The notes under the pieces: generated by a model
What the model was told of the DNA's origin: nothing
What the model saw: the letters and a program-made list of their open reading frames with translations, nothing else
Database searches by the model: none
Shown here: positions 4,164 to 54,021 of the stretch, piece by piece
Layout: the number at the start of each line of letters is the position of its first letter
Numbering within the stretch: the stretch's first letter is position 1
Position numbers and translations under genes: made by a program
DNA from: Phycisphaerales bacterium
Lineage (GTDB): Bacteria > Planctomycetota > Phycisphaerae > UBA1845
Length of the DNA stretch: 64,000 nucleotides
Direction of reading: 5' to 3'
Assembly (NCBI GenBank): GCA_020353195.1
Contig: CP070691.1
Location: forward strand, 3,498,362-3,562,361

Positions 4164-4716
4164 ACGCTGCCGTTTCGAAGCTGCGCCACAGCCGCACGAG
4201 GGGCTCGCGCTGCAGGCCGCCAACTGTCATCGTTTCGCTGCACGGCGGACAGGCAACCCGTGCCAGTAAGACTTCACAACCCGCCCCACAGCGTGGATTT
4301 CCTTTAGAAGCCTCTTCAGGTAGCCGCGTGCTTCTGGTATACTGGTATTCTGTGGATGTTCCCCGGTCCGCAGGTGGGCGATGGAGGCTGGCGTGACGGA
4401 GGGGCAGCCTTTCTGTTGGGTGCTGGGATGGGTCCAGCCAACTCGAGTCCATACCCGTAACGGCGCCGGTCCTTTCTACGTTTGGTTGCGCCGTTTGGGA
4501 GTGCCGGTCATGGAGCTTCGCAGACTTCCGGTCTCCGCGATCGTACGTCTTTGTGGTATGCGGTCCGCCGGCGCGCGGCCCCGGATGGCGAGGAACTTGT
4601 CCGGCCGGGTCAGGGCCAGGAGCGAGCACAGACTGTGCACAGGTCAGTGAAACAGGAAAACAGCGGAGATGTCTCCGTTCTTCGCGTGTCTCGGGAATGC
4701 AGAAAGGAGTGAACAG

Positions 4717-7700
4717 ATGCTACAAGCCCAACGAGACAATGCAGAGTCTTCGGCAATGTTTGCGCTAACGGCTGCACTGGTGGTGCTGCTCGTGGCGCCT
4801 GTACTGTATGCCCTGTATCCCTCAACGGCGGCATTCCCGGCGGCTCTGGAGGACCCTGTGGTTGATGGCGCCTTCACGACGCCGATGGAATACGCAGCCG
4901 CGAACCGGGTTCTGGACGACCTCGGCGTGGGGCATTTCTACCGCCAGCATCGGGAGAACTGGACGGTCAACGGAATCACATACACGGATACGGTAACGTT
5001 CTTCGATCTCCACTTCTTCTTTCACTCGGCCTACGGCCAGCTCGACCTCTACGACATGAACAGTTGGGATTTGCAGTGGGGGGACACGCGGATTCAAGTC
5101 TGGGTGTTCCTGGCCGGCGACCATCCCGATCCGGACGACTGGACTTGGCTGGATCCTTCCGAGATCGGATCGGGCACCTACCCCGCCGGTTACAACGACG
5201 ACGGGGGCTTCCTGGTACGGCTGAACGGCGACCCCTCGACGGACCGCATCTGGAACGTAGGCGACCCCCAGCCGGGTGATCCGAGCTGGGACTTCGCGGA
5301 CTACTACGGCGTGTTCATCCAGGGCGGATTCAACAACTCCGCGTTCACACAGGGGTACAGCGGCGTCACCGGCAACCGGGAGATCTACGAGTTCTCGCTC
5401 ACGATGAACCAGATACCCGGCACCGGGCCGACCGGAGACGACGGCGGCATTCCTGGCGTTCCCCAGTTCAGCGGCCCGGATGAGGACAACCCGATCCCAC
5501 CGGGTATCTGCGATCCGATCTGGGAAGCCGTATGGGACTGGGAGAAGGTCAAGGACTGGAAACCGGAGATGGGGGGCTTCGGCACGTTCGGCGGCACCGG
5601 CTATATTCCGGTGATCGTCGACTGGGTCATCATGGGCTGGGATGACTCGATGCACCAGGGCGAAGTGCCGCCCGACGAGGACTCGTTCGCCACACCGGGT
5701 GACGGCGGGACCTTCGTCATCTTCGGGCCCACTCCAGCCCTGCCTCCGCTTCCTGCCGACTTCTTCGGCCCCGGATCCGACCCGTTTGAGGGGCACGTCA
5801 CGTTCGAAGGCGATCCGTTCGATCCCGACTCCCTGGGCGACACGTCCACGCAGGTGCAGCGCGCGGGCCATCCGGTCTTCCCGCCGGACCCGCCGGGAGC
5901 CATGGGGACCGTCGAGATCGAGATCGTTGAGCTATCGCTCGTCTCGGTCGCGCCGATCATCGTGACGTACTTCGGCGGGGGTGCCCCGGAGCAGTGGGAC
6001 GTAGCCGTATCGCTTTCGGAGGTGCCCGGCCCTGTGGGCGGGAGCCTGACGGCGCTCAAGACCCATCCCAACGGTGGGACGTACGACGCCCATTACTACG
6101 TTCAGTTGGCGTTCACGTTCACGAGAGTCTCTGACGGAACCGAGCGAAACCTGGATACCGGCGCGGTCGGACTCCCACCACACTACTTCGAGATCGTGGG
6201 TGCACCGTTCGTGCATTCGCTCGCCCCGTTCCTCAATTGGATCATCGCGCCCTCGGACGGGATCTTCGTACCCGGCGTGGACGAGCCTGTGCCGGGCGAT
6301 CCGTTGTCTCAGACACCGGTTGCGACGGTAGCGTGGGACCCGGCGGTAGCGGCTTCCCACATACTGGTCCCGGCCGAGCGGCCGCTGCTGACGATTAACG
6401 AGCTGGAGTACGACCAGCCTGGCTTCGACGACCGCGAGTTCATCGAGTTGTTCAACCCGGGAACCACGCCGATGAGCATGGACGGCTGGTCGCTCGAGTT
6501 TTTCAACGGAGCCGACGCGGGCAACCTCTATCGGACCGTGGATCTCTCCGTGACCCCTCCCCTTGGCGCGCGTGACTATCTCGTTGTCGGCACCCCTCTT
6601 GTCCCCAACGTGGACATCCCGGAGTGGACGGACAACGGGATCCAGAACGGCGGCACGTCGCCCGACGGTATCGCTCTGCTGTGGAACGGGGTCGTGGTGG
6701 AGGCCTTGTCCTACGAGGGAAGCGGCACCAACGGTTTCGTAGCCCAGGGCGGCAATGCGGGTGGGACTTTCCTCCCGCTGCTGTACCTCGAGGACGCGAC
6801 GTCGAACTCCCTGCAGAAGATCCCTGACGGCGGGACCTGGACCGAGACCCCGAACCAGACGCCGGGCGAAGCGAACTTCCTCGGGTTGGCCCCCGTCGGG
6901 GCCTGCTGCCTGGAGGACGGAACCTGTGCGGCAGACGTCGCCGAATACGCGTGCGTCGACATGAACGGTGTGTGGCGGGGTGAAGGGTCCATGTGCCTGG
7001 ACCTCGATGCGTTTGTCGCCTGTCTGGCCGGCCCGGTGGACCCGATCCCGACCGGTTGTATCGCCTGGGATCAGGACGACAGCGGCCACATCGACCTTGG
7101 TGACTTCGCGCTGATACAACAGCACATCTGTATCGAGGCGCCCGATCCTACCGGAGCCTGCTGCACGCCCTACGACGTCTGCGACGAGCTCACGCTGAGT
7201 GAGTGCAACTCGAACGGCGGCGGGTTCCGCGGCGAGGGGACGGTCTGCAGCCCGAACCCGTGCGAGTGTGTGAGCATCGACGCGCTCCCGGACATCCCGC
7301 CCTATCCTGACGACTATCCGATTCCGGGAGTCTGCGTCACCGGCGCCATCGTCAACAACGACTACGACCTGGTCAACTCCCCCGACGTGAAGAACTTCCA
7401 CATCCAGGATCCCGTTGGCGTTGCCGGCTTGACCGTGTTCGGGGACAACGCCGAGATCAATTCGCTGCTGGCCATCGGCTCGGCCGGTGACGAGATCAAA
7501 ATCTGGGGCACCCTGGAGCTCTACTTCGATACACCGGAGCTCGTGGGGCCGTTTGAGATGACGTACCTGAGTTCGCCCGGCGTGCCGTCGCCGCTGCCGC
7601 TGTTCATTGCGGATCTGATGGCCGGCTACCCGACGAACAAGGGGTACCTCAGTACGCTGATCATCCTGCAGAACGTCGAGTTCGACCCGATTGTCTGGGG

Positions 7701-7908
7701 CACGCCCTTCGCGTACGGCAACTACACCGTTCACGACGTGGCGAACCCCGCCGACACGTTGACGTGCCGCATCGCCAACAGCGAGCCGGGGGTGCTGCCG
7801 ATCATTGGCACGCCGGTCCCCGCCGGTCCCGTCAACATCATCGGTATCTGCGCGATGTACTCCCACAGCTACCAGGTGCAGCCTCGTGTGCCCGGGGATA
7901 TCCTGTAA
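4717..7908 (+). CDS. Large secreted protein with lamin-tail domain (LTD), Cys-rich GACC modules, a dockerin/EF-hand-like motif and an OB-like C-terminal region
   Basis: Strong SD (AAAGGAG) 7 nt before the ATG at 4717, and a signal-like N-terminus (FALTAALVVLLVAPVLYA). LTD signature LTINELEYDQPGFDDREFIELFNPG...GWSLEF. Two GACCxxxxxC...RGEG..C modules and a DQDDSGHIDLGDFALIQ motif. Confidence 0.8.
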   Translation: MLQAQRDNAESSAMFALTAALVVLLVAPVLYALYPSTAAFPAALEDPVVDGAFTTPMEYAAANRVLDDLGVGHFYRQHRENWTVNGITYTDTVTFFDLHFFFHSAYGQLDLYDMNSWDLQWGDTRIQVWVFLAGDHPDPDDWTWLDPSEIGSGTYPAGYNDDGGFLVRLNGDPSTDRIWNVGDPQPGDPSWDFADYYGVFIQGGFNNSAFTQGYSGVTGNREIYEFSLTMNQIPGTGPTGDDGGIPGVPQFSGPDEDNPIPPGICDPIWEAVWDWEKVKDWKPEMGGFGTFGGTGYIPVIVDWVIMGWDDSMHQGEVPPDEDSFATPGDGGTFVIFGPTPALPPLPADFFGPGSDPFEGHVTFEGDPFDPDSLGDTSTQVQRAGHPVFPPDPPGAMGTVEIEIVELSLVSVAPIIVTYFGGGAPEQWDVAVSLSEVPGPVGGSLTALKTHPNGGTYDAHYYVQLAFTFTRVSDGTERNLDTGAVGLPPHYFEIVGAPFVHSLAPFLNWIIAPSDGIFVPGVDEPVPGDPLSQTPVATVAWDPAVAASHILVPAERPLLTINELEYDQPGFDDREFIELFNPGTTPMSMDGWSLEFFNGADAGNLYRTVDLSVTPPLGARDYLVVGTPLVPNVDIPEWTDNGIQNGGTSPDGIALLWNGVVVEALSYEGSGTNGFVAQGGNAGGTFLPLLYLEDATSNSLQKIPDGGTWTETPNQTPGEANFLGLAPVGACCLEDGTCAADVAEYACVDMNGVWRGEGSMCLDLDAFVACLAGPVDPIPTGCIAWDQDDSGHIDLGDFALIQQHICIEAPDPTGACCTPYDVCDELTLSECNSNGGGFRGEGTVCSPNPCECVSIDALPDIPPYPDDYPIPGVCVTGAIVNNDYDLVNSPDVKNFHIQDPVGVAGLTVFGDNAEINSLLAIGSAGDEIKIWGTLELYFDTPELVGPFEMTYLSSPGVPSPLPLFIADLMAGYPTNKGYLSTLIILQNVEFDPIVWGTPFAYGNYTVHDVANPADTLTCRIANSEPGVLPIIGTPVPAGPVNIIGICAMYSHSYQVQPRVPGDIL

Positions 7909-11430: not shown

Positions 11431-12402
11431 TCAGCCGACTTCCCGGGTTTGGAACAGGGCTACGCCGATCAGCAGCGCCGCCGCCACATACAGACCGCAG
11501 TACGCCGCCGTCATCCACACGTAGCTCCCTGGAACGATGATCTCGTCCGAATGAAGGGCCTGGGTCACCCCGATGAGGCTCAAGTTCGGTACGATTCTGT
11601 ACACTGCGGCTGCAACCGCCGAGTCCTCCGCGTGGCGCCCGAACGCGTAATCCGAGATGAGTCCGATCGCCAGAACCGCGGCGCAAGTCAGCAGCGTGCT
11701 GATCTGCCCCAGCCGCGTGGACGCCGCCAGTGCCACCGCCGCCAGCAGCAGGACGCCGCACAGCACGAGGCACGCCGCAGCGATCGGTTGGCCCGCGATC
11801 ATCCCGTCCCAGAACGTCTGGACCTTGAACTCCTCGTCGAAGCAGGCGATGAGGCCCACGGCCACGGTGAAGACCGGGACCGCCCAGCCGACGGCCGTTG
11901 ACGCGAACTCCATGTCATAGAAGTAGTTACAGAAGCCCGCCCCCAGAAGGACCAGCAGCAGACCCCCAAACCCGAACGCGATGACCGGCCAATCCCAGGG
12001 ATCGGCGGAGGTCTGCAGCACCGCGTGCCGCTGCGTCATCACGAACACCATGAAGCTGATGTAGAACGCGACGACCAAGGCCGCCAGCAGCCCCAGATAC
12101 TTGCCGCCCAGGAACGTGGTGCGGCTGACGGGCTTGCTGATAACCGTCAGGGCGGTCTTGTTCTCGATCTCCCGGCTCAGGACGCCGGCGGCGCTGAAGG
12201 AGGCCAAGAACATTCCGCTCAGCAGCAGCGTAGAAAGCCCCAGGTCCATCAGGAGTTTGTCGTCGTCGTCGAGCGTGAAGGCGGCCAGGCCCACGTTCAT
12301 GATCATCAGAAACGCGGTCACCCCCAGGATGACGAGGTAGATGGGCTGGCGAACGGTCTCGATGAATGAGTTGGCTGCGATGCCGAACAGCTTCCCGAAC
12401 AT
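11431..12402 (-). CDS. ABC-2 type transporter permease (NosY/COG1277-like)
   Basis: Six predicted TM segments. The N-terminus FIETVRQPIY and the motif SREIENKTALTVISKPVSRTTFLGGKYLG are typical of ABC-2 permeases. It is paralogous to the 18308-19726 product. The start is at CAT 12400-12402 (MFGKLFG). Confidence 0.65.
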   Translation of the reverse strand: MFGKLFGIAANSFIETVRQPIYLVILGVTAFLMIMNVGLAAFTLDDDDKLLMDLGLSTLLLSGMFLASFSAAGVLSREIENKTALTVISKPVSRTTFLGGKYLGLLAALVVAFYISFMVFVMTQRHAVLQTSADPWDWPVIAFGFGGLLLVLLGAGFCNYFYDMEFASTAVGWAVPVFTVAVGLIACFDEEFKVQTFWDGMIAGQPIAAACLVLCGVLLLAAVALAASTRLGQISTLLTCAAVLAIGLISDYAFGRHAEDSAVAAAVYRIVPNLSLIGVTQALHSDEIIVPGSYVWMTAAYCGLYVAAALLIGVALFQTREVG

Positions 12403-12611
12403 GACGAGCCACCGCAAATGCTTGTCAGGCACCGGGTAACCGCCGGCCCGTGCCTGCGATTCCCGTGCTTGGCATCCCGGGTCGGATATTGTATTCTGCT
12501 GCCCCGACCCGGCAATAGAGACGCCGGTTGATGATCCGGGACCGCTGACGGAGAGACGAAGAGCCGGTCCACCTTGTTCGCAGGGAAACCTTGGCCATTT
12601 CGGAGTCGTCA

Positions 12612-14729
12612 ATGAGAGACCTGGTCGGACCCGACCGGCGAGGCCAGTTAGCCTCGACGGTGGGGCTCGTCATTCAGTTGGCCGGCGTTGCGGTGCTGCT
12701 GGCGCTGGGGATCTGGAGCGGAGCCCAGTCTGTCCTGGTCGGCGGCCGCCATATGCTTGGCGGCGTGTTGATCTGGGTGGTGTTGATCCTGGTCTTCACC
12801 CAGCGGAAGCGGGCGGACCTGAAGGACCGCGAGATCGAAGAGCTCAAGCGTGCCCGCGAGGCTGATCCGTCGCTGAGGATATTCGAGCTGGAAGAAGGCT
12901 CGGTCGAACGCCGCCGTCTGGCCTGGATGTACCGGTGGCTGTTTCTGATCACCACCGTTGTGCTGGCGGCATACCACGTCGTGGCGAGCCTGTTCATCAG
13001 GTGGGCGTGGGACCTCGGCACACCGCTGGAAGACGACGTCTGGACCTCGGTCTCGGCGCCGGGGCCGGTGATGGCGCTGGTGGCCGGCGTGGGGTTCGTG
13101 TGTTTCCTGTACTCCCGATATGCGGCCGGCATGGCGAGGCAGAAGGAGTGGGGGTTGCTGCGGGCCGGCGCGAGCTACCTGGCGGGCAACGCCCTGGCCT
13201 GCCTGGCCGTCGTGGTGTCGGTCGGGCTTCAGTCCTACGACGTTCGCTACGGCGAGCCGATCGTCGCTCATGGCATTCGCATTCTGATGCTGCTGATCGG
13301 CGTGGAATTCCTGATCGCCCTGGTGCTGAACTTCTATCGCCCGCGGATTCCGGGAGAGGAGCCCCGCCCCGCGTTCGACAGCCGCTTGCTGGAGATGATC
13401 AGTGAGCCGGGAGGTGTGGCCCGTTCGATCGCCGACGCGGTGAACTATCAGTTCGGATTCGAGGTCACCAAGACGTGGTTTGCCCAGTTGCTGCGGCGGG
13501 CGTTTTTCCCGCTGGCGGTCCTGGGACTTCTGGCGCTGCTGTTGTTGTCGTCGGTGGTGATCGTCGACGCCGGTGAGATGGCGTTCGTCGAGCATTTCGG
13601 GCGGCTCAAGCAGCCGATCGATCAGCCCTGGGCCCCGGGCCTGCATTTCAAATGGCCCTGGCCCATCGACCGCGTCTATCGCGCCCCGGTTCGCCGGCTG
13701 CAGCAGACGATGGTCGGGGGTACGCCAAGGAAGTCACCCTACGACGAGCAGGGCAAGCTCAAGCCGGTGTTGTGGGCCGAGGAACACGACTTCACCTACG
13801 AGATGATGACGGTGGTCGCCTCGCCGCCGCAGACCGACTATGACAGACTGCCGGGCGCCGGGGACACGGACGAGGGTGAGGGCGAAGGCGAAAGCAGGGC
13901 CGTGGCCGTCAGCCTGATGAACATCTCCGTGCCCATCGAGTACCGGATCAAGAACCTGTACGACTACTTGTATCGCTACGAGGAGGCCAGCAAGGTTCTG
14001 GAGGTCATCGCCTTTCGGGAGTTGTCGGACTACGCCGCCAGCGTGGACGCCGACAGGATCATGTCGGCCGGACGGGCCGAATTCGCCACGAAGTTCCGCC
14101 AGCAGGTTCAAGAAGAGGCGGATCGGCTCGAGCTCGGCATCGAGATCACGTTTCTGGCGTTGCAGGACGCCCACCCGCCGGCGCGGGGGGACGTCGCCAA
14201 GTCTTTTCAGGAAGTGATCACCGCCGACATGGGCAAGAACACGGCGATCGAGACCGCGCGAGGCGAAGCGCGGGAGATGCTGACGTTGGTGGCCGGAAAC
14301 GTGAACCGCGCCGAGGAACTCGTCACCGCGGCGCGCAGGCGCAACGAACTGGCCGAGACCCCCGGCGCGACGCAGGAGGAGAAGGCGCTCGCAGCGCGGC
14401 GGGTGAACGATCTGCTGCAGGGAAACGCTGCCGAGGGCGTGCCGCGCATGAGCGGGGAGGCGGCGCAGATCATCGCCGAGGCCCAGGCGCGGCGGACCCA
14501 GGCGCTCAGCGAGGCCGAGTCCAAGGCCCGGCTGTTCGAGGCGGAGGTAGTGGCCTACGAGGCGGCGGACCAGGTGTACAAGGTGCGAAAGTACCTCGAG
14601 ATGCTCAAGGAGAGTCTGGACAAGATGCGCAAGTTCGTTTTGACCGCCGATGCCAGCGAGATGAACTTGATCGTGATTTTCGAAACGGAGAAGAAGAGCG
14701 TGATCGACATCGCGGAAGAGACGGAGTGA
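12612..14729 (+). CDS. Polytopic membrane protein fused to an SPFH/band-7 (HflK-like) domain and a long coiled-coil tail
   Basis: About 330 aa N-terminal region with multiple hydrophobic helices, then a VVIVDAGEMAFVEHFGRLKQ...PGLHFKWPWPIDRV SPFH core, then QDAHPP...AFQEV and a Glu/Ala-rich helical tail. GGAG lies 8 nt before the ATG at 12612. Confidence 0.8.
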   Translation: MRDLVGPDRRGQLASTVGLVIQLAGVAVLLALGIWSGAQSVLVGGRHMLGGVLIWVVLILVFTQRKRADLKDREIEELKRAREADPSLRIFELEEGSVERRRLAWMYRWLFLITTVVLAAYHVVASLFIRWAWDLGTPLEDDVWTSVSAPGPVMALVAGVGFVCFLYSRYAAGMARQKEWGLLRAGASYLAGNALACLAVVVSVGLQSYDVRYGEPIVAHGIRILMLLIGVEFLIALVLNFYRPRIPGEEPRPAFDSRLLEMISEPGGVARSIADAVNYQFGFEVTKTWFAQLLRRAFFPLAVLGLLALLLLSSVVIVDAGEMAFVEHFGRLKQPIDQPWAPGLHFKWPWPIDRVYRAPVRRLQQTMVGGTPRKSPYDEQGKLKPVLWAEEHDFTYEMMTVVASPPQTDYDRLPGAGDTDEGEGEGESRAVAVSLMNISVPIEYRIKNLYDYLYRYEEASKVLEVIAFRELSDYAASVDADRIMSAGRAEFATKFRQQVQEEADRLELGIEITFLALQDAHPPARGDVAKSFQEVITADMGKNTAIETARGEAREMLTLVAGNVNRAEELVTAARRRNELAETPGATQEEKALAARRVNDLLQGNAAEGVPRMSGEAAQIIAEAQARRTQALSEAESKARLFEAEVVAYEAADQVYKVRKYLEMLKESLDKMRKFVLTADASEMNLIVIFETEKKSVIDIAEETE

Positions 14730-14770
14730 TTCGGCACGTATCCGGCGCCGGGAATAGGAGAGACTCAGGC

Positions 14771-15775
14771 ATGTCCAGTCGTTTGCCCAGCATACTCGCG
14801 GCGGTCGTTCTCGTTGCCGTGCTCGGGTTCTACATGTGTTTCTTCGAGGTGCGGACCACGGAGGTGGCGATCGTCAAGACGTTCGGCGAGGTGAGATCGG
14901 ACGCGATCACGGAGCCGGGGTTGAAGTGGAAGTGGCCCTGGCCCGTGCAGGAGGTCGTCAAGTACGACACGCGTATCCGCATCCTGGAAGATACCGTCGA
15001 GGAGACGCCGACCATCGACAGCAGGAACGTCACCATCACCACGTTTACGGGCTGGGTGGTCTCCGATCCGCACAAGTTCCATACGGCTTACCCCAATCCG
15101 AAGGAAGGCGAGCAGGCCCTGCGCACCAAGATCCGTGCGCATAAGAAGGCCGTCATCGGCCGGCATCGCTTCTCCGAATTCGTCTCCACGCAAGCAGAGG
15201 AGCGCAAGCTGGACGACATCGAGAACGAGATGATGCAGCTCGTTGCCGACGAGGCGCGCCAGGGATTCGGTGTGGACATCAAGGTCTTCGGGATCAAGAA
15301 GCTGGGACTGCCCACCGAAGTGACCTCCCAGATCTTCGAGAAGATGAAAGCGGAACAGAAGACCAAGGCCATCAACTTCGAGGCCGAGGGCAAGGCCAAG
15401 GCCCAGGACATCCTCGCCGAGGCCAGATCCAAGAAGGAGGACGTCCTGGCCGAAGCCCAGCGCAAGGTTGACGAGATCGAGAGCGACGGACGTCGTCGCG
15501 TGGGTGAAATCTACAGAAACTTCGAGGCGCATCCCGAGCTGCAGATCTTTCTGGATAAGCTGCGGGCCATCGAAGAGATCCTCAGGGAGCGGACAACGGT
15601 GTTCTTCGACACGAATCAGGTCCCGATTGACCTGTTTGACGACGAGAAACGCCTCCAGCCGCGGGAGCTGCGGCTGGACTTGGAGGCGGCGGCGGCCGAG
15701 CCCGTGCTCCAAAGTTCAGACGGACAATCCGGACCCGAGACGGAATCCGGTGCGACTCCGGAGCGGATGCCATGA
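14771..15775 (+). CDS. SPFH/band-7 protein, HflC-like
   Basis: Single N-terminal TM, then VRTTEVAIVKTFGEV...PGLKWKWPWPVQEV, followed by a Lys/Glu-rich coiled coil. AGGAGAG precedes the ATG at 14771. The alternative GTG at 14726 would overlap the upstream stop. Confidence 0.8.
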   Translation: MSSRLPSILAAVVLVAVLGFYMCFFEVRTTEVAIVKTFGEVRSDAITEPGLKWKWPWPVQEVVKYDTRIRILEDTVEETPTIDSRNVTITTFTGWVVSDPHKFHTAYPNPKEGEQALRTKIRAHKKAVIGRHRFSEFVSTQAEERKLDDIENEMMQLVADEARQGFGVDIKVFGIKKLGLPTEVTSQIFEKMKAEQKTKAINFEAEGKAKAQDILAEARSKKEDVLAEAQRKVDEIESDGRRRVGEIYRNFEAHPELQIFLDKLRAIEEILRERTTVFFDTNQVPIDLFDDEKRLQPRELRLDLEAAAAEPVLQSSDGQSGPETESGATPERMP

Positions 15776-17061
15776 CCGGTTCTTGCCATTGCCACCCCCC
15801 GAAGACGCCCGGGCCGGACGAGGTCCCGCTCGATGCGGCGAGCCAGTCGCTGGCCGACGCCCTGCGGGCCAGCTTCCGCATTCTCAAAGCGATCATGTTC
15901 CTGCTGGTGATCGTGTTCCTGTGCTCGGGGATCGGGATCGTCGACAACAGCGAGGAGGCGGTCGTACTGCAGTTCGGCAAGCTGAAGCTCAAGGACGGCC
16001 GACCCTACCCCCCGGGGATCCTCTGGGCGCTTCCCTATCCGGTGGACGAACCGCTGAAGGTGCCCACCAAGCAGCGAAACAAGCTGAGGATCATGAGTCA
16101 TTGGTTTCACATCCGGGAGGCCGATGAAGCCAAACCGCTCAGGGAACTGTCCGTGCTGTACCGGGGAAAGCTGGATCCGGCCAAGGATGGGGCGCTGTTG
16201 ACCGCCGACGAGGGATTGGTCCACGTGAAGTGGACGTTGTTCTACCGGATCCACGATCTCGAACAGTTCGTGTGCAACGTTGCCGACACCGTGGGGGATG
16301 ACGTCGATACGCTGGTTACGTCGCTGTTGGAAAGCGCTGCAATACGGGTAGTGGCCGGCTACTCCGCTGCGGAGGTTGACCGGACGAAGACGGCCGACAT
16401 GGCCGCGAGGGTCAGGAGTGAGGTGAACGCCGCGCTCGATCGATTGGGAGCGGGCATCCGGGTCGAATCGTTGGAGCCGGAGACCACGGTTCCCATGGAC
16501 ACGATCGACGCGTTCGCCGAGGTGACCAGGAAAGAGAACGAGAAGGCGACGCGCATCCAGGAGGCGCGCAAGCAGGCCAACGAGATCCTGACCAGCACCG
16601 CCGGCGACGCCCACGAATACTTGACTGAGACGATCGAGGCCCTCAAGCAGGCCCGGGCGGAGGGCGACGCGTCTCAAGTGGCCGCTCTCCAGGCCGAGGT
16701 CGATGAGGCCCTCGAGGTGCGAGCCTCCGGCCAGGCCGGCAGCATGATATCCCAGGCGAAGGCGTACTACACGAAGGCGGTACAGAAGATCGAGGGCGAC
16801 GTGGAAGGCTACCGGGCTGTCCTGGACGAATACTCGCGCAGCCCGAAGCTGTTGATCAACCGCTTGTGGCAGGAAGCGCGCACAAGGCTTCTCGCCGCCG
16901 AGGGGGTAACGAAAATCGGCATTCCCCTGGGCGTCAAGGAGATTCGCGTCCAGCTCGGCCCCGATCCCCAGCAACGAGAACTCGACGAGATCGAGAGGCT
17001 GAAGAAGGAGAAGGATGCGAGAAGCGGGCCCGGTTCTCCTGGTGCGACTGGACGAAAATGA
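15772..17061 (+). CDS. SPFH/band-7 protein, HflK-like
   Basis: TM segment (IMFLLVIVFLCSGIGIV), then EEAVVLQFGKLK...PGILWALPYPVDE, and a long helical C-terminus. Its ATG overlaps the upstream stop (ATGA at 15772-15775). Confidence 0.8.
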   Translation: MTGSCHCHPPKTPGPDEVPLDAASQSLADALRASFRILKAIMFLLVIVFLCSGIGIVDNSEEAVVLQFGKLKLKDGRPYPPGILWALPYPVDEPLKVPTKQRNKLRIMSHWFHIREADEAKPLRELSVLYRGKLDPAKDGALLTADEGLVHVKWTLFYRIHDLEQFVCNVADTVGDDVDTLVTSLLESAAIRVVAGYSAAEVDRTKTADMAARVRSEVNAALDRLGAGIRVESLEPETTVPMDTIDAFAEVTRKENEKATRIQEARKQANEILTSTAGDAHEYLTETIEALKQARAEGDASQVAALQAEVDEALEVRASGQAGSMISQAKAYYTKAVQKIEGDVEGYRAVLDEYSRSPKLLINRLWQEARTRLLAAEGVTKIGIPLGVKEIRVQLGPDPQQRELDEIERLKKEKDARSGPGSPGATGRK

Positions 17062-17097
17062 CGCCGCAGCCTCGACGGCGGCGATGGCAGACCCCAG

Positions 17098-18315
17098 ATG
17101 ATCCGTCAAGGCCATATGACCGGCAAGAACATCCCCGTCCTGCAAACCGTCGGCCTGACCAAGGTGTTCAAGGACTTCTGGCGGCGCGACAAAGTCGAAG
17201 CCGTCAAGAATCTCAACCTGGAGATCTACCGGGGTGAGGTTTTCGGCCTGTTGGGGCCCAACGGGTCGGGCAAGAGCACCGCGATCAAGATGCTGCTCGG
17301 ACTGCTCTATCCCACGCGCGGGCAGATCGCGGTTTTCGGTCGGGCTCCAACCGACGTGGCGATCAAGGCCCGAATCGGGTTCCTGCCCGAGGAGTCCTAT
17401 CTGTACCGCTTCCTCAACGCGCGCGAGACGCTCGACTACTACGGGCGTCTGTTCCATCTGCCGGCACGAGTCCGTCGGGAACGCATCGAGAAACTGCTCG
17501 ACATGGTCGGGCTCAGGCATGAAGCCCGACGCCGGCTTGGGGAGTACTCGAAAGGAATGGCGCGGCGGATCGGCCTCGCCCAGGCGCTGATCAACGACCC
17601 GGATTTCCTGATCCTGGACGAGCCGACGGCGGGGATGGATCCGATCGGCACCCGCCAGATCAAGGACCTGATCCGTCAGCTCGGCGACCGCGGCAAAACC
17701 ATCCTGCTGTCGAGCCATCTACTCGCCGACGTCGAGGACGTGTGCGACCGCGTCGTGATTCTCTACGGCGGGCATCAGCGGGCGGCGGGGCGGGTCCGCG
17801 AGCTGCTCAGCCAGGAAGACCGAACGCAAATCATCACCCAGAAGCTCGGCCCCCAGACCATCGAGCGAATCCGTGACCTCATCCGGCGGGATGAAGCCAA
17901 GGACGTGTTGGACGTCAGCTCGCCGGCGCAGAAGCTGGAGACCATCTTCCTGCAGATCGTCGAAGAGGCCCAGGCCGCCAACATCGCGACCTCCGGTGCC
18001 CGGGCTGCCGGGGCCACGCCCGATTTCCTGGGCACCGGCGATGCCGGCGAGGACGTGGTGACCGAACTGATCGAAGCCGCACAGACGCCGCCGACACCCG
18101 AACCGGAGGAGCCCGCCCCGGTGGTGCCCGCCAAGGCCGCACCGGCCGACGACGTGATCGAGGAACTGGTTGCGGAAGCGGCGCCGACGGACCCCGCCCT
18201 GACGGGATCGCCGGACGAGGAACCGGATGCGACGCCACGCAAGCAGGTCGGGGCGGACCGCGGCGTGATCGATTCGCTGCTGACTGACGACAAGGAAACG
18301 AACAGCAGTGACTAG
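17098..18315 (+). CDS. ABC transporter ATP-binding protein with low-complexity Pro/Ala/Glu C-terminal extension
   Basis: Walker A GLLGPNGSGKST, signature YSKGMARR, Walker B FLILDEPTAGMDP and H-loop LLSSHLL. An alternative ATG exists at 17116. Confidence 0.9.
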   Translation: MIRQGHMTGKNIPVLQTVGLTKVFKDFWRRDKVEAVKNLNLEIYRGEVFGLLGPNGSGKSTAIKMLLGLLYPTRGQIAVFGRAPTDVAIKARIGFLPEESYLYRFLNARETLDYYGRLFHLPARVRRERIEKLLDMVGLRHEARRRLGEYSKGMARRIGLAQALINDPDFLILDEPTAGMDPIGTRQIKDLIRQLGDRGKTILLSSHLLADVEDVCDRVVILYGGHQRAAGRVRELLSQEDRTQIITQKLGPQTIERIRDLIRRDEAKDVLDVSSPAQKLETIFLQIVEEAQAANIATSGARAAGATPDFLGTGDAGEDVVTELIEAAQTPPTPEPEEPAPVVPAKAAPADDVIEELVAEAAPTDPALTGSPDEEPDATPRKQVGADRGVIDSLLTDDKETNSSD

Positions 18316-19726
18316 CATCTGGGCCGTCGCCCGACACATGATCGCCGAGGCGATCCGGATGAAGATCGCCTTGTTCTTCATCTGCCTGCTGGCCCTGTTG
18401 ATTTTCGGGTTGCCGTTCGTGGCCCGTGGAGACGGTACGGTGAGCGGGGCGGTGCAGGCGTTCATGACCTACGCCCTGACCGCGGTCTCGTTTCTGCTGG
18501 CGCTTCTGACCCTGTTCATGTCCCGATCCCTGTCCGACGAACTGGTGAACCGGCAGATTCTGATCCTGATGGCCAAGCCCTTGCCGCGCTGGCAGTTCAT
18601 GTTCGGCAAGTGGTTGGGAATCGTGGTGTTCGACGTGGTCCTGCTGGTGATCGCCGGCGCGGGCATCTGTGGGATGGTGCGCTACATCGCCGCGTCGGAG
18701 CCGGCGCGCGACGAGCTGGATCGTCAGAAGCTCGACGGTGAGGTGTTGACCGCCCGGCACCGCGTGGAGGCCGAGGTGCCCGGCGACATGTTCAAGCGCG
18801 TCGCCGAAACGGAGTTTGAACGCCGCCGGGAGGAGGGGCTGTACGCCGACATCACGGACCTGAACCCCGACCGGGTCAAGGAGGATCTGCGGCGCCAGGT
18901 GGAGGCGGACTGGCGCAGCATCGTGCCGCTCACCTACCGCGTGCTGCAGTTTGACAACGTCCTGTGCGACCGCAGAGCCGACCGCACGATCCAGATCCGC
19001 TACAAGGCCGTCGCCACGCGGTCCCCGCCGGACGAGATCATCCGTTCGCGGTGGGTGATCGGCGATCCGGAGAAGGTGGCCCCCGTCGTCGTGCTCCGCC
19101 GCGACGTGCACGACCGGTTCCACACCTTCTCCGTTCGCGCCGACGCGGTCGCCGAGGACCGGACCCTGACCATCCGTCTGGACAACGTCAATCCCTACGC
19201 CGACGATCCGGCGTATCCCCGCGAGCCGCCGAACACCGTGTACTCGCTCCCCGTGATCCGCCTGGACGAGAAGGCCGGCGTCGAGGTGCTCTTCGCGGTC
19301 GGGACGTTCGAGGGCAACGTGGTCCGCGTGCTGGCGCTGATCCTGTTCAAGCTCATGTTTCTGGCCGCCTTGGGCCTGTTGGCGACGTCCGTATTTTCAT
19401 TCCCGGTCGCCTGCATGGTGTCGTTGACGGTGTACGTGCTTGCGGGGGCCCGCGGGTTCATCGCCGAAGCCCTCCTGTACCTCGGAGACGAAGGGGCGGT
19501 GCAGGTGTTTCAGATAGTGTTCGGCCTGGTGCTGCGGGTGGTGCTGTTCGTGATTCCGGATTTCCCGCGCTATGATGCGGTCGATGTCCTGGTCGACGGG
19601 CGGAACGTGACCCTGCTCTGGGTACTTCAGGGATTTGGGCGACTGGCTGTCATCCAGACCGGTGTTCTTCTGCTGTTGGCGTGTCTGTTGTTCCATCGCC
19701 GCGAGGTGTCGGAGGTTTCGATCTGA
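18308..19726 (+). CDS. ABC-2 type permease paralog with a large (about 200 aa) extracytoplasmic loop
   Basis: Three N-terminal and three C-terminal TM segments. The motif SDELVNRQILILMAKPLPRWQFMFGKWLG is paralogous to the 11431-12402 product. Its GTG start overlaps the ATPase stop. Confidence 0.6.
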   Translation: MTSIWAVARHMIAEAIRMKIALFFICLLALLIFGLPFVARGDGTVSGAVQAFMTYALTAVSFLLALLTLFMSRSLSDELVNRQILILMAKPLPRWQFMFGKWLGIVVFDVVLLVIAGAGICGMVRYIAASEPARDELDRQKLDGEVLTARHRVEAEVPGDMFKRVAETEFERRREEGLYADITDLNPDRVKEDLRRQVEADWRSIVPLTYRVLQFDNVLCDRRADRTIQIRYKAVATRSPPDEIIRSRWVIGDPEKVAPVVVLRRDVHDRFHTFSVRADAVAEDRTLTIRLDNVNPYADDPAYPREPPNTVYSLPVIRLDEKAGVEVLFAVGTFEGNVVRVLALILFKLMFLAALGLLATSVFSFPVACMVSLTVYVLAGARGFIAEALLYLGDEGAVQVFQIVFGLVLRVVLFVIPDFPRYDAVDVLVDGRNVTLLWVLQGFGRLAVIQTGVLLLLACLLFHRREVSEVSI

Positions 19727-19850
19727 TTGAAATCGCGAGAAGCCCGTGGCGAATCACGGAGCGGAATCCTTACCGCAGCCGATGCGGAGGCATGAAGCAG
19801 AGTGTGAAGGGAGCGGGGGCTTCGGAGTGCCCCGCCGCAGGCAGCAGGCA

Positions 19851-21872
19851 ATGAGAGACGCGAAATCCGACATCCAGGTGCCGGAACCCGCCGTGTCGCC
19901 GGGCGATCGGGTCGAAGTCCCGGAGTACCTCGCCCAGCGGGAGCGGGCGCAGCGCCGGGACCGCCTGATTCAACTGGCGGCCGTGGTCCTTGCCCTGGCG
20001 GCGGTGGTGGCCGCCGGCTCGCTGCTGACCCCGCTGAACGCGATCCGCCGGGAGCGGCAACTGGTGATCGATCCGCAGACCGTGGGCACCCTTCCCCCGG
20101 ACATATCGCTCATGACCCAGACGGGGACGCTGCGGGCGCTGGCCATCGTCGTCGGGTTCGTCCGGGCGGAAGATCTCAAGGAGAAGGGGCGCTTCTTCGA
20201 GTTGATGCAGCTCTCGACCTGGCTGTGCAAGCTCGCCCCTCAGTTTGCGAGCGTCTGGGGGTTCGCCGCGTGGAACCAGTCCTACAACATCTCCGTGTGT
20301 GAATACACGGCCGAAGGACGTTGGCGCTGGGTGCTCAACGGGATCAAGCTGCTTCGGGACCACGGCCTTGTCTACAATCCCAAGTCGATCGGGCTGTACA
20401 AGGAGCTGGGCTTCATCTTCTGGCACAAGGTCGGCGACATCTCCGACGACCATCACTGGAACTACAAGAAGGAGCTGGCCGTGCAGATGGAGCGCGTCCT
20501 TGGTGCCAAGCCTGTGGCACTGACCGAGGACGAGGAGCTCGACCACTTCCGCCCTGTCGCCGCCGCTCCCCGGGATGTCGAAGGCCTCGTCGCCGGCGAT
20601 GCCCGGGTCGCCGACTTCGTGAACCGCCTCCGGGCGGTGGGCCTGGTTCCCGGCGCGTCGCTGCTGGAGTTTGTCGCCCGTTACCAGCGCCCGGAGGCGA
20701 ATGTCACCGCGCTGCGAAAGGAGGTCGACGATGAGTCCCGGGGGATCATCCAGCAACGCCTTGATGTCCTGAACGACGAATCGACTGCCGACGCCCGGGA
20801 TCGCCTGCTGGCCGCCCTCCGCGCGCGCGAGCTGCGGACCCAGTTCAAGATGGACCCCAAGTGGATGATGACCCTGATGGATAAATACGGGCCCATCGAC
20901 TGGCGGACCCCCTTCGCTCATGCCCTTTACTGGTCGAGCTACGGTGACAAGGTCACCAAAGGGCAGCTCAACCTCGACGCCGCCGACTCGATGAACACCG
21001 CCCGGTTCATCTTCTTCGCCCTCAACAACATGGTCCAGCGGGGCCGCTATATCGTTGAGCCTGACTGGGACAAGCCGAACGAGTCCTTCCTCAACGCCCT
21101 GCCGGATCTGCGGTTCATCGATCACCTGCACGAAGCCTACCTGGAAATCGGCGAGGAGCAGGACGGTAACGATCCCGAGTTCCGGCCCGGGACGTCCGGA
21201 CCCCGCTACTGGGTCGGGCACGTCAACTTCCTGACGAACGCGATCCGGCAGCTCTATTTCGAGGGCGACGCCAGGTCCGTCGCCAAGGCGAAACGCTACT
21301 TCCGATACCTGCGCGAGCACGACGTCGACCTGATCACCGGCAAGACGAAGCCACAGTACATGCAGTCGGTCGGGAGGTTCGTGTGGAGCACGCTGGACGA
21401 CGCGTTCGATTCGTCACGCGGGGCGACGCAAATCATCGGCGCCTTCGTCAACCGTTCACTCAAGGAGATCAGCCTGGGCAACGTCGAGGGATCGCGGGCG
21501 TTCATGGAGAAGGCTCACGAAGCCTACGAGGAGTACATGAAAGATCCGAGAACCGACCCGAACGACCGTCGACAATTCGAACCTCTGTCGCGCATCTATC
21601 GGGATCAGGTCGGCCTGTTCATGCGTTCGCCCGGCAACTCCACCTACCAGAAGATCCACCTCTGGAGCAGCCTCGACGTGAAGGTCAGACAGGACGTCTA
21701 TGACGATCTGCTGCCCTTTTTCACCGTGCTCTGCGAGGCCCATGATCCGCCCCTGGACGTGGACAAGGCGTTCCGGATCCCACCCGGCATGGACGACGCC
21801 CGTGACCGCGAACCGAAAGCCCGCGACCGCAAACGCGACGCCTCGGAAGGGGTCAGGGACTTCAGTCCATAA
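19851..21872 (+). CDS. Membrane-anchored protein of unknown function (about 670 aa, mostly helical)
   Basis: Single TM (LIQLAAVVLALAAVVAAGSLL) and coding-like codon usage throughout, with no domain I can name. The start is uncertain (19746 GTG, 19782 or 19851 ATG). Confidence 0.6.
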   Translation: MRDAKSDIQVPEPAVSPGDRVEVPEYLAQRERAQRRDRLIQLAAVVLALAAVVAAGSLLTPLNAIRRERQLVIDPQTVGTLPPDISLMTQTGTLRALAIVVGFVRAEDLKEKGRFFELMQLSTWLCKLAPQFASVWGFAAWNQSYNISVCEYTAEGRWRWVLNGIKLLRDHGLVYNPKSIGLYKELGFIFWHKVGDISDDHHWNYKKELAVQMERVLGAKPVALTEDEELDHFRPVAAAPRDVEGLVAGDARVADFVNRLRAVGLVPGASLLEFVARYQRPEANVTALRKEVDDESRGIIQQRLDVLNDESTADARDRLLAALRARELRTQFKMDPKWMMTLMDKYGPIDWRTPFAHALYWSSYGDKVTKGQLNLDAADSMNTARFIFFALNNMVQRGRYIVEPDWDKPNESFLNALPDLRFIDHLHEAYLEIGEEQDGNDPEFRPGTSGPRYWVGHVNFLTNAIRQLYFEGDARSVAKAKRYFRYLREHDVDLITGKTKPQYMQSVGRFVWSTLDDAFDSSRGATQIIGAFVNRSLKEISLGNVEGSRAFMEKAHEAYEEYMKDPRTDPNDRRQFEPLSRIYRDQVGLFMRSPGNSTYQKIHLWSSLDVKVRQDVYDDLLPFFTVLCEAHDPPLDVDKAFRIPPGMDDARDREPKARDRKRDASEGVRDFSP

Positions 21873-38196: not shown

Positions 38197-41100
38197 ATGG
38201 CCATCCGGTTCGTCATCGGTCGCGCGGGGACGGGCAAGACGTCACATTGCCTGGCCTCCGTGCGACGTCACCTCCGGGAGTCGCCCGTCGACGGCGAACG
38301 CCTGATCCTGCTCGTGCCCGAGCAGGCCAGCCTGCAAACCGAGCGAGCGCTGATCGACCATCCCGACGTCGGTGCCACCGTTCGGGCCCAGGTGCTCAGC
38401 TTCCGGCGACTGGCGCTTCGCGTCCTGCAGGAGACCGGTGCCCGGCGACGACAGGCCCTGTCCGACACGGGGCGCACCATGGTGCTGCGCCATCTGCTCG
38501 GCGAGCTCGGCGATCGGCTCAGGCTCTACCGCAATGCCGACCGCTACCCCGGGCTGATCGGCCAACTCGCCCGCACGATTGTGGAACTGATTGACGAAGC
38601 GGTGGCGCCGACTGACCTGGACCCGCCGGCGGCTGCTGACGCCGACGACCCCCTGCTGCGCCACAAGATCGACGACGTTCGCCTGGTGTACGCCGCCTAC
38701 ATGGAGTACCTGGCGACGGACAAGCTCGACGCGTCGCAGCAGCTCGAGCTGGCTCGCGAACAGGTCCCCCGCTGCGAGACGCTGACTGGTGCCCGTCTCT
38801 GGGTGGATGGCTTCGCGGGATTCACGGGGCAGCAGGTGCTCATGCTGGTCGCACTGGCGCGGGTGGCCCGCAGCATCGAGATCACCGCCATGATCGATCC
38901 CGACTACGCGATGCGGGCCGGGGACGCCGCGCGAGTGGAGCCGACGGACCTGTTCGGAAAAGTCCAGCGGACCTTTCTGGACCTGCGGCAGGCGTTTGCC
39001 GAAGCGGCGATTGCGGTCGAGCCGCCGCTGGGGCTGTCGCCCGATCCGCCCCCGCGGTTTGCCGGCACCCCGGCATTGGCCCGGGTCGAGCGGCTGCTGT
39101 TTTCCGAACGGCAAGCGAGTGCTTCGGGAGCTGATCTCGGACCGGTGTTCGAGCCGGTCAACGATACTTGCGGGACCGGACAGCACGTGTCGCGCAGCTC
39201 CGAACCGGGTTTCGGCCACAGTGACGCGTCGTGCCCCGTGACGCTGGTCCGCGCGTCGGATCGGCGGGCGGAAGCCGATTACGTCGCGTCGTTGATCTGT
39301 CAGCTGATCCAGGACGGCGCCGGCAGGCTGCGGTATCGCGACGTGGCGGTCATCCTGCGCGACCTCGATCCGTATCATGACCTGCTGTCGGCGGCACTGT
39401 CGGAACGCGCGATTCCGTTCTTCATCGACCGCCGCCGACCGACGTCGCACCATCCGGTGGTCGAGCTGCTGCGCGGTCTGACGGGGCTGGTCGATCGCCC
39501 GTTTTCGCTGGAGGCGGTGCGGCTGCTTCTCAAGACCGGCCTGACCGGTCTGGACGATACCGACGCCGATGAGCTGGAAAACTACGTGCTGGCCTGCGGG
39601 ATCGAGGGAGCGGCCGTCTGGCGACAGGAGGGCGATTGGACGCTGCCCTCGTCGTCGCCGTTGGACCGGCGCGGCCGTGAGGTCTCGTGCCAGGAGCAAA
39701 GGCGGCTGGCTCGGATCGACCGCTCGCGCCGCCGCTTCATCGAACGGTTCCGTGCGTGGTATGACGCGGCTCAGGGGCACCGCCGGACCGGCCGGGAATG
39801 GGCGCACCTGATGAAGACGGCGCTCGACGATCTCCACGTGGCGGACCGCCTGGCGGAATGGGCTTGCCGCGCGGAAGACGACGGCGACCTTGATCTGGCC
39901 GAGCAGCACCGGCAGATCGCCCGCGACATCACCGCTTTCCTCGACGATCTGTGCGTCGCCCTCGGCGATGAACGGATGGACGTCCAACGCCTGGGCGAGG
40001 TGCTGAATGCGGGTCTGTCGCAGCTGACATTAGGGCTGGCGCCGCCGATGCTCGACCAGGTCCTGGTCGGGTCCGTGGAGCGCAGCCGCCACCCCGACAT
40101 CCGCGTCGCGATCATCATGGGTTTCAATGAGGGCCTGTTCCCCCATTCGGGAGCCGAGGGTTCGATCTTCAACGATGACGACCGCGATTGGCTGACCCGC
40201 CAGGGCGTTCGCATCGGAATCACGCGCCGCCAGCGAGTGCTCGACGAATCGCTGTTGGCGTATACCGCATTGACCCGGGCAAGCGACGCGGTGTGGGTCA
40301 CGTTCGCCGCGGCCGACGAGGACGGCAAGGCCTTGCGGGAGTCGCCCTACGTCGCCGCCTTGGCAAGGGCCTGCCCCGAGCTGGAAAGCCACCGCGTGGA
40401 CGACGGGTATCGAAGCCGTGATACCTGGAACATTCGGGTCTCGCGGGATCTGGCCGCTCGTCTGGCCCATGAGTTCCGCAACCGCCCGCCGCTGGCGGCC
40501 GACGACGACAGGCGGCGCCGCGGGCTGTGGAACGACCTCTACGAGGCGTCACGACAGGCGGAAGGTCTCCACGGAGTGCTGCAACGTTCGCTCGCGTCGC
40601 TGACGTACACGAACGTCTCCAAGATCACCGAAGCATCAGCAAGCCGCCTGGTCTCCGAACCGTTCACTGCCAGCGTTTCGAGGTTGGAGACGTTTGCCGC
40701 CTGCCCGTTCCAGCACTTCGCGCGGTACGGGCTCGGACTGGAAGAGCGCAAGCTGGCCGCGCTGGCCGACGTGGACGTGGGCACGATTCATCACGCGATT
40801 CTGGAGCGTTTTGTCCGGCAGGTGGTCCAGTCGCAGGGCTCCCTGGCGGAGATGGACGATGCGCAGATGCGCTCCCTGCTTGATGCGAGCTGCGACGCGG
40901 TGACGGACTCGGTCGCGTCACCGGGTGTCGGGTTCAACGCCCGCGATCAGTACATGCTGAAACGAAGCGCCGCCGACCTGGACCGCATGCTCCATGTCCA
41001 GCGCCGCGCCGCCCGGGCCGGCCGGTTTCGACCGCGAGCGGCGGAAGTGCCGTTCGGCTTCGACACCGACGAAAGTCTGCCCCCGCTGGCAATCAAGACT

Positions 41101-41796: not shown

Positions 41797-41811
41797 CCGG
41801 AGTGGCTCCCC

Positions 41812-53886: not shown

Positions 53887-53915
53887 TTGACGCCGGGCCG
53901 GAGATCTGTCATACT
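53887..53915 (+). promoter_or_regulatory. Candidate sigma70-type promoter (TTGACG-N17-CATACT) for the 54022 lipoprotein gene
   Basis: Hexamers read directly from the sequence, about 105 nt upstream of the ATG. AAGGAGG RBS at about 54008-54014. Confidence 0.3.
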
Positions 53916-54021
53916 TTCGCCCTTGTTCGGGCCGGGTGTCTATCCCAAAGCGTTGCAGTTCCGTTCTGCATGCGCGGGAATCCTAATCCGGCACTCAAAA
54001 CTCAAACTGAAGGAGGCTCTG

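Follow-up and report, generated by a model that had tools for sequence, protein, structure and literature searches.

An HflK/HflC-type SPFH trio encoded with transporter genes in Planctomycetota: a candidate client-dedicated membrane scaffold

SPFH proteins are found in every domain of life, and the clients of SPFH cages are known in few cases, namely FtsH for HflK/C, m-AAA proteases for prohibitins, and ion channels for stomatin. In a 64-kb stretch of DNA from a Phycisphaerales bacterium (contig CP070691.1, positions 3,498,362 to 3,562,361; hereafter the window, with positions counted from its first letter), three consecutive SPFH genes (SPFH1, SPFH2, and SPFH3) are followed by genes for an ABC ATPase, an ABC-2-type permease (permB), and a membrane-anchored protein of an orphan family (unk708), and a second permease gene (permA) is divergently transcribed from the upstream side. 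The question raised by this locus is which membrane proteins such a trio serves. An earlier examination of the letters alone (the sequence-only reading) had proposed an SPFH cage or microdomain dedicated to an ABC-2 exporter. The reading that we favor, with a probability of about 0.5, is that the trio forms an HflK/C-type periplasmic scaffold dedicated to the co-encoded transporters, possibly in metal handling; the cage, its clients, its topology, and its substrate are what we infer. The chances are similarly balanced that the locus, which is conserved across Planctomycetota, constitutes a single functional module in the cytoplasmic membrane.

The gene permA was located at positions 11431–12402 of the minus strand, and SPFH1 (12591–14729, 712 aa), SPFH2 (14726–15775, 349 aa), SPFH3 (15772–17061, 429 aa), the ABC ATPase gene (17098–18315, 405 aa), permB (18308–19726, 472 aa), and unk708 (19746–21872, 708 aa as an open reading frame, ORF) were located on the plus strand. 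The ORF of permA extends to a TTG at 12612; the ATG at 12402, from which the product has 323 aa, is likely its start because the homologues are 320–325 aa long. Similarly, unk708 probably starts at the Met at approximately 19851 because its homologues are approximately 660 aa long. All seven genes had coding-type codon composition, with G+C contents of 0.82–0.88 at the third and 0.39–0.46 at the second codon position. Long antisense ORFs (e.g., 15616–17718, 17915–19123, and 19770–21320, all on the minus strand) were rejected as high-GC artefacts because they failed this codon-position test. The ATGA overlap between SPFH2 and SPFH3 (15772–15775), the 36-nt gap between SPFH3 and the ABC ATPase gene (17062–17097), and the 8-nt overlap between the latter and permB (18308–18315) were found as the sequence-only reading had described them, as were all seven ORFs and the peptides PGLHFKWPWP, PGLKWKWPWP, PGILWALPYP, GPNGSGKST, and LILDEPTAG, every one of which was present in the translations. 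A GTGA overlap between SPFH1 and SPFH2 (14726–14729) was absent from its list. With three overlapping junctions and one of 36 nt, the layout is operon-like. The divergent gap of 209 bp that it reported is correct with the ATG at 12612 as the start of SPFH1, but the gap is 188 bp when the TTG at 12591 and the permA ATG at 12402 are taken as the starts.

To map the locus in other genomes, one genome per GTDB species was scanned, and the best 80 loci were mapped by tblastn with the seven window proteins and six flanking proteins as queries for each locus. Full-length relatives of SPFH1 numbered in the hundreds and were found in Phycisphaerae and other metagenome-assembled genomes (MAGs) of Planctomycetota; a relative was encoded in 519 GTDB species representatives. 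Carriers of the cluster included a MAG labelled Phycisphaera mikurensis (L065) and complete genomes such as OY776568.1, CP070827.1, and CP165719.1. The exact order permA(−) | SPFH1-SPFH2-SPFH3-ABC-permB-unk708 was present in 48 of the 56 loci in the best-80 set that were long enough, and a further 4 of the 56 deviated solely by a longer gap next to permA. The exceptions were three MAG chromosomes of one accession series and one locus lacking unk708. Identity to the window proteins in the exact-order loci ranged from 80% down to 34%, and permA adjoined SPFH1 in nearly all related loci. The gene order was thus not limited to close relatives, since it held at SPFH1 identities as low as 38% in genomes and approximately 32% in metagenome loci. 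None of the genes flanking the cluster in the window (thioredoxin, lipid-A acyltransferase, queA, alcohol dehydrogenase, ccsA-like, and hemA) recurred in the mapped loci by tblastn. Because the same order was seen in approximately 70 independent loci with unrelated flanking genes, the arrangement is far beyond chance.

These data bear on the possibility that the adjacency has no functional meaning or that the cluster is a mobile stress or anti-phage island. Several components gave only sub-threshold family matches, which speaks for it, but the order conserved in approximately 70 independent loci contradicts this explanation, and PADLOC, plasmid, and G+C checks all gave it no support; we consider it highly improbable. 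PADLOC yielded generic matches for the ABC ATPase only and none for the other six proteins, and the locus was rejected as an anti-phage defence system. A plasmid-borne or mobile nature was rejected as well: the N-terminal domain of SPFH1 had no tblastn match in 72,556 plasmids, and the G+C content of the cluster was in line with that of the remainder of the window.

Departures from the common arrangement were observed in one accession series. In CP070744.1, the cluster was broken within SPFH3, and the halves lay 2.2 Mb apart (L002 at 1.52 Mb and L084 at 3.69 Mb), with a 93-aa N-terminal fragment of SPFH3 beside permA-SPFH1-SPFH2 and the 321-aa remainder beside ABC-permB-unk708. This split reflects either a genuine rearrangement or an error of assembly. 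In L074 and L076, from the same accession series, the cluster was likewise truncated. A small protein of unknown function was a recurrent neighbor in the near set, which we read as lineage synteny.

Pfam searches bore out the assignment of three SPFH genes and one ABC ATPase gene, with three matches to Band_7 and one to ABC_tran. Band_7 (PF01145) was above its cut-off in SPFH1, SPFH2, and SPFH3 with E-values of 3e-14, 6e-25, and 5e-20, respectively. SPFH1 and SPFH3 matched the NCBIfam family TIGR01933 (hflK) with 119.2 and 126.6 bits, respectively, not reaching its cut-off of 159.4, and SPFH2 matched TIGR01932 (hflC) with 119 bits, not reaching its cut-off of 134.4. Among solved structures, the best match of the C-terminal part of SPFH1 (13566–14729) was HflK residues 274–347, that of SPFH3 was also HflK, and those of SPFH2 were HflC chains (E = 3e-19); the C-terminal segments of the trio aligned with HflK 260–347 and HflC 192–306. 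Judged from their sequences, SPFH1 and SPFH3 are HflK-like, and SPFH2 is HflC-like. Over its full length, SPFH3 is a paralogue of the C-terminal part of SPFH1 (26% identity over approximately 380 aa, E = 6e-19), and SPFH2 is more distant from both than they are from each other. On the basis of hydropathy and the positive-inside rule, the trio was predicted to have the topology of HflK/C, with the N-termini inside and the SPFH domains in the periplasm. SPFH2 and SPFH3 were each predicted to contain a single transmembrane (TM) helix with the N-terminus inside, and the C-terminal part of SPFH1 was predicted to consist of a periplasmic HflK-like SPFH domain, a coiled coil, and a C-terminal cap segment.

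The closest families and solved structures of the trio are thus HflK and HflC, and some source records label the homologues 'protease modulator HflK'. The trio could accordingly be the HflK/HflC complex of this lineage that regulates an FtsH encoded elsewhere, the transporters being neighbors as FtsH substrates or by inherited synteny. No FtsH or NfeD gene was found in the window, in agreement with the sequence-only reading, and no scanned ORF of the window had an NfeD match in Pfam. Among 167 related loci, in which adjacency only was checked, an FtsH homologue was near the cluster in two (L043 and L045), and tblastn with E. coli YbbJ, a weak probe at such distance, detected NfeD in none; the trio is therefore not regularly accompanied by ftsH or nfeD elsewhere. 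Absence of an adjacent FtsH gene is weak evidence, because in E. coli, too, ftsH has no hflKC in its vicinity and is flanked by folP and rlmE, and the two loci with an ftsH homologue downstream of unk708 speak for the link to FtsH. On the other hand, the scores of the trio are below the equivalog cut-offs, the solved HflK of 419 residues lacks the 325-aa extra membrane module of SPFH1, and no more than 2 of the 167 loci have FtsH next to the cluster. Moreover, the transporter order is kept at 30–40% identity while the flanks change, and plain synteny rarely persists in this manner. We consider it unlikely that the trio simply regulates an FtsH encoded elsewhere. In L043 (20049–21464) and L045 (19328–20785), the FtsH homologue, with 54% identity to E. 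coli FtsH, was encoded on the minus strand approximately 0.3–1 kb downstream of unk708 and in the opposite orientation.

The sequence-only reading had missed the fusion of SPFH1 to a six-helix membrane domain resembling the cation diffusion facilitators (CDFs). This N-terminal module (approximately 325 aa; aa 1–325, 12591–13565) comprises six TM helices (aa approximately 14–249), a highly conserved cytoplasmic linker with the consensus YRPR...RPAFDSRLL..ISEPGG.ARSIADA.NYQFGFEV..TWF, and a seventh TM helix (aa 307–325). An AlphaFold2 model of the module had a pLDDT of 88.6, and in a Foldseek search of the PDB with this model, the top 24 matches were all CDFs (YiiP, ZnT1/3/4/7/8, and SLC30A10) with a probability of 1.00 and TM-scores of 0.34–0.46. 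The Pfam family Cation_efflux (PF01545) matched the module with an E-value of 9.6e-4 and 19.4 bits, below the cut-off of 26.6, with nearly the whole profile covered, and only 3 of 15 homologues had a match to it at E < 0.01. Alignment of the SPFH1 family with E. coli FieF and ZitB by hhalign was colinear (P = 1.2e-4). The tetrahedral metal site A of CDFs (D/H-xxx-D in TM2 and H/D-xxx-D in TM5) was not kept in SPFH1; E239 was invariant and membrane-embedded, and the polar residues Q29, N200, and N243 were highly conserved. The module was almost always fused to an SPFH domain, as judged from 867 clusters at 50% identity, nearly all of 620–850 aa. The Pfam, Foldseek, and hhalign results for the CDF link, each weak by itself, agreed with one another. 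We read the module, from its model and sequence, as having a CDF-derived or CDF-like fold without the classical transport site.

The ABC ATPase matched ABC_tran (PF00005) with an E-value of 8e-32. Its Walker A, Walker B, and signature motifs and its H-loop were intact, and the nucleotide-binding domain was near-invariant across 62 homologues. It is of the DrrA/NosF/ABCA type, and its nearest solved relatives were ABCA3/4/7/1 (E = 1e-56 to 1e-66) and NosF (E = 6e-51). The domain is followed by an acidic, Pro/Ala-rich, low-complexity, disordered C-terminal tail of approximately 135 aa (aa approximately 270–405; 17900–18315), which was conserved among the homologues in length and only in parts in sequence. 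The tail contains three copies resembling D[VI][VI].EL[IV] (DVVTELIEAA, DVIEELVAEA, and GVIDSLLTDD).

Both permeases, taken to be of the ABC-2 type, had ABC2_membrane matches in Pfam that were weak and below the cut-off. PermA, a membrane protein with approximately 6–8 predicted TM segments, matched ABC2_membrane_2/5 at E-values of 2e-4 to 6e-4 (21 bits against a gathering cut-off of 27.2), and PermB matched ABC2_membrane_2 at 1.9e-5 (24.5 bits against 27.2). PermB has a soluble insert of approximately 205 aa (aa approximately 122–326) after its third TM helix, predicted to be periplasmic, and its matches to sequences of solved structures were at chance level only. The two permeases had been called paralogous on the strength of a shared motif; BLASTP aligned them across that motif with an E-value of 2e-5, as distant paralogues.

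The product of unk708 was predicted to have a cytoplasmic N-terminus, one TM helix (aa 77–95), and a periplasmic all-alpha solenoid of approximately 610 aa (structure model with a pLDDT of 81.9 and a pTM of 0.77). Foldseek gave no match with E < 1e-3 for this model and only generic TPR-like matches with TM-scores of at most 0.17. No PDB sequence match beyond chance level was obtained, and no Pfam family was found in 30 members of the family. The motifs AAWNxxYNISV, RWxW, HK..D.H..YK, and GPxDWR were kept across clades, including distant clusters.

The composition of the locus in remote relatives was then compared. A search that started from P0356, a distant member sharing 33% identity across the N-domain, led to a Ca. 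Brocadiae MAG, Ca. Uabimicrobium, and Sedimentisphaerales, and the SPFH trio was also found in the Ca. Brocadiae MAG and in Ca. Uabimicrobium. PermA, SPFH1, and SPFH2 formed the set retained in most of the distant loci examined. A metagenome scan provided 80 further loci (L088–L167), in which the order permA | SPFH1 SPFH2 SPFH3 P1B-ATPase ABC permB unk708 was exact in 21 of 22 full-length loci. The additional gene, encoding a P-type ATPase of the heavy-metal type (P1B; TIGR01525, 544 bits against a cut-off of 346), lay directly after SPFH3 in 42 of the 47 metagenome loci with room for it. The ATPase has approximately 620 aa and lacks the N-terminal metal-binding domain; its DKTGT motif is intact, and most members have a CPC motif in TM4. 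In the clade of the window, the P1B ATPase was missing from the position between SPFH3 and the ABC ATPase gene; a near relative (L077) has one just outside permA, and no P-type ATPase gene was found anywhere in the window.

In Ca. Uabimicrobium sp. HlEnr_7 (L085; CP165719.1), the trio was encoded with a P1B-type ATPase and an ABC ATPase, and no homologue of permA, permB, or unk708 was detected within 10 kb. In L086 and L087, permA was present with SPFH genes and without the ABC ATPase gene. The proposal of a cage dedicated to an ABC-2 exporter is partly supported by the deeply conserved linkage of the trio to transporters but is too narrow, given L086 and L087 without the ABC ATPase, L085 without permA, and the P1B ATPase in the commoner distant form. 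Downstream of the cluster in L085 were genes for another ABC ATPase and a permease of the ABC-3 family, which includes ZnuB-type metal importers, and upstream were genes for an RND pump and a partner protein with a faint match to the CzcB family. Upstream of permA in the P1B-containing set (L088–L167), the recurrent genes encoded a GNAT-domain protein, a FabZ-like dehydratase, an acyl carrier protein, and a ketoacyl synthase, in 41, 23, 19, and 17 loci, respectively. These neighbors probably reflect lineage synteny, and the latter three could hint at a lipid link.

Such a link would fit a scaffold with transporters whose cargo is a lipid or envelope glycolipid, moved by an ABCA-like ABC-2 exporter in an SPFH microdomain to unk708 as the periplasmic acceptor, with the P1B ATPase as a passenger. 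SPFH proteins are classically tied to lipid microdomains, which accords with this cargo, as do the ABCA3/4/7/1 phospholipid transporters as the best solved relatives of the ABC ATPase, the fatty-acid genes in the upstream synteny of the distant set, and the CDF-like domain without a metal site. However, the P1B ATPase does not occupy the place of a passenger, being located inside the operon, at the SPFH3–ABC position, in 42 of 47 distant loci. In addition, similarity of the nucleotide-binding domain is no predictor of substrate, NosF, an ATPase of copper-centre assembly, being nearly as close, and the fatty-acid genes are missing from the clade of the window. A lipid cargo is accordingly doubtful in our assessment.

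The spacer between permA and SPFH1 was examined for control elements. The sole promoter-like sites within the cluster were a divergent, overlapping pair of sigma-70-like promoters at 12469–12515, one on the plus strand (−35 TTGGCA, 17-nt spacer, −10 TATTCT) and the other on the minus strand (−35 TTGCCG, 16-nt spacer, −10 TACAAT), whose −10 boxes overlap within ATTGTATTCT. Of 83 related intergenic regions, 54 contained the pattern TTGGCA-N13-17-ATTGTA, compared with 0.005 in shuffles, and the spacing was N13 in 53. From this layout, RNA polymerase can probably occupy only one of the two promoters at a time. The conserved divergent pair speaks for two jointly controlled transcription units, one running leftward and the other rightward. 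The leader of SPFH1 also contained a two-part motif on the minus strand at 12555–12580 (CGAACA-N16-CGTC; family consensus CGAACC-N16-CGTnnTA), which 27 of 81 loci contained, compared with 0.29 in shuffles, and which was enriched at the spacing of 16 only, with 0–4 loci at each other spacing. The motif overlaps the likely ribosome-binding region of SPFH1. It resembles promoters of extracytoplasmic function (ECF) sigma factors and may be an ECF-sigma-type promoter reading toward permA. No Rfam family was found at gathering scores over the 64 kb or at E ≤ 1 in 12300–12700, and a riboswitch or known RNA in the SPFH1 leader or elsewhere in the window was rejected.

The favored scaffold might operate as follows. 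Because the trio is homologous to HflK/HflC, the HflK-like SPFH1 and SPFH3 and the HflC-like SPFH2 would assemble into a hetero-oligomeric ring or cage on the periplasmic face, which would corral the membrane machines encoded alongside, instead of or besides FtsH. In the window, these clients would be a type-V ABC system of the NosF/ABCA-like ATPase and the different ABC-2 permeases PermA and PermB; the membrane-anchored periplasmic solenoid of unk708 would cooperate with this system and, together with the insert of PermB, act in the periplasm. The degenerate CDF-like domain of SPFH1 and its cytoplasmic linker would tie the scaffold into the membrane and may serve as a built-in client or an adaptor that recruits the machines. 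The most likely theme of the operon would be export or periplasmic handling of a transition metal, as suggested by the P1B ATPase of the commoner distant form and the metal-exporter fold of the SPFH1 domain. A bolder version, which we hold to be improbable, is a closed nano-compartment on the cytoplasmic membrane, facing the periplasm, in which the trio encloses metal pumps (the P1B ATPase of most lineages and the CDF-derived domain of SPFH1), the ABC-2 mechanotransducer, and unk708. In this confined chamber, a periplasmic acceptor or cofactor would receive the exported metal. If true, this would represent an SPFH compartment of a new, client-specific kind that is particular to Planctomycetota.

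Several points weigh against the scaffold or its metal theme. We infer the ring with transporters inside from homology, and all three SPFH proteins are below the NCBIfam equivalog cut-offs for HflK and HflC; FtsH encoded elsewhere is a possible client. As for the CDF link, every Foldseek E-value was above 1e-3 (best, 4.6e-3), the probability given by hhalign was 28%, and the family profile of the SPFH1 N-domain found no CDF among PDB sequences, so that the link rests on the fold and weak profile evidence. In the hhalign alignment, the FieF site-A ligands D45, D49, H153, and D157 corresponded to H54 (variable), a gap, Y196, and N200 of SPFH1. The similarity of the ABC ATPase to ABCA lipid transporters equals or exceeds that to NosF. 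The P1B ATPase has been lost from or moved in the clade of the window, and thus the metal theme is borrowed from its relatives; no metal-related genes recurred in the flanks of related loci, and no metal riboswitch was present.

The other genes of the window were ordinary housekeeping genes. An AddB/AddA-type helicase-nuclease pair (1199 and 1269 aa) at 38197–45621 on the plus strand was likewise ordinary and unrelated to the cluster. A 1079-aa protein encoded at 4669–7908 on the plus strand had a sub-threshold match to LTD (lamin-tail domain) as its sole family match, and the large ORFs at 47641–49176 (minus) and 53887–55611 (plus) had no Pfam match.

If the scaffold reading is correct, the operon ties an HflK/C-type trio to defined transporters phylum-wide and thereby offers a conserved, genetically defined set of candidate clients. 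As a natural system amenable to genetics, it would make it possible to test whether SPFH cages are compartments for specific clients and how clients are recruited. The analysis also defines two protein families that lack a Pfam match, namely the solenoid of unk708 and the N-terminal module of SPFH1, and suggests that Planctomycetota may handle metals or the envelope by a new route.

The sequence-only reading had known of no described system of this composition, and a full-text literature search, whose coverage was incomplete, likewise found none and no published description of an operon that combines SPFH genes with ABC-2 genes or P-type ATPase genes. Apart from unk708 and, arguably, the N-module of SPFH1, the components themselves are all from known superfamilies. 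The nearest known system in architecture is E. coli HflK/HflC-FtsH (PDB 7VHP and 7WI3), with which the locus shares HflK-like and HflC-like genes in one operon, a TM helix with the N-terminus inside, a periplasmic SPFH domain, a coiled coil, and a C-terminal segment. In contrast to E. coli, the locus encodes three paralogues (K-C-K) rather than two, whose scores are under the equivalog cut-offs; one of the HflK-like proteins carries a fused CDF-like module of seven helices, the transporter genes are hard-wired, and there is no FtsH link in the window, with FtsH adjacent in 2 of 167 loci. In SPFH-NfeD operons, such as E. coli qmcA-ybbJ, archaeal stomatin PH1511/PH1510, and B. subtilis floA/floT, an SPFH gene is also co-transcribed with a presumed membrane partner, but the partners here are transporters, and no NfeD was found in the window or, with the E. 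coli YbbJ probe, in related loci. In E. coli K-12 (510000–518000), qmcA-ybbJ is flanked on one side by cueR, near which copA is located, and on the other by fetAB, which encode an iron ABC exporter; this position beside a P1B ATPase and an ABC exporter is a curious parallel that may be a coincidence.

NosDFY (PDB 7O0Y) is an ABC-2-type mechanotransducer for assembly of the copper centre of N2O reductase, and NosY is presumably a member of ABC2_membrane_2. The locus resembles NosDFY in its NosF-like ATPase (E = 6e-51), its permeases with weak matches to ABC2_membrane_2, its large periplasmic partner, and the metal context in relatives. It differs in that the periplasmic partner, unk708, is all-alpha with no beta-helix match, whereas NosD is a beta-helix, and in that there are two different permeases; to our knowledge, NosDFY has not been described with an SPFH component. 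With the CDFs (YiiP/FieF, ZitB, and ZnT), the SPFH1 module shares a six-helix fold of the same topology and a colinear profile alignment, but it is under the Pfam threshold, its site-A ligands are replaced, and the CDF C-terminal domain is absent, with the linker, TM helix, and SPFH domain in its place.

Precedents for SPFH proteins serving particular membrane proteins have been reported. An SPFH protein serves one membrane protein encoded by an adjacent gene in the case of flotillin-associated rhodopsin (PMC10308929), and S. aureus FloA, linked to the FhuC/Isd ABC system, is a precedent for an ABC transporter (PMC10147376). Both are flotillin-type with single clients, and neither includes a trio of the HflK/C type, a fusion resembling a CDF, a P1B ATPase, or a protein like unk708. 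Three SPFH paralogues are also encoded in one operon of P. aeruginosa, PaFlo5-PaFlo6-PaFlo7, which has limited phylogenetic conservation (PMC13086221). The main text of that report contains no mention of transporters or ABC genes, whereas the cluster described here, with its transporter genes, is phylum-wide.

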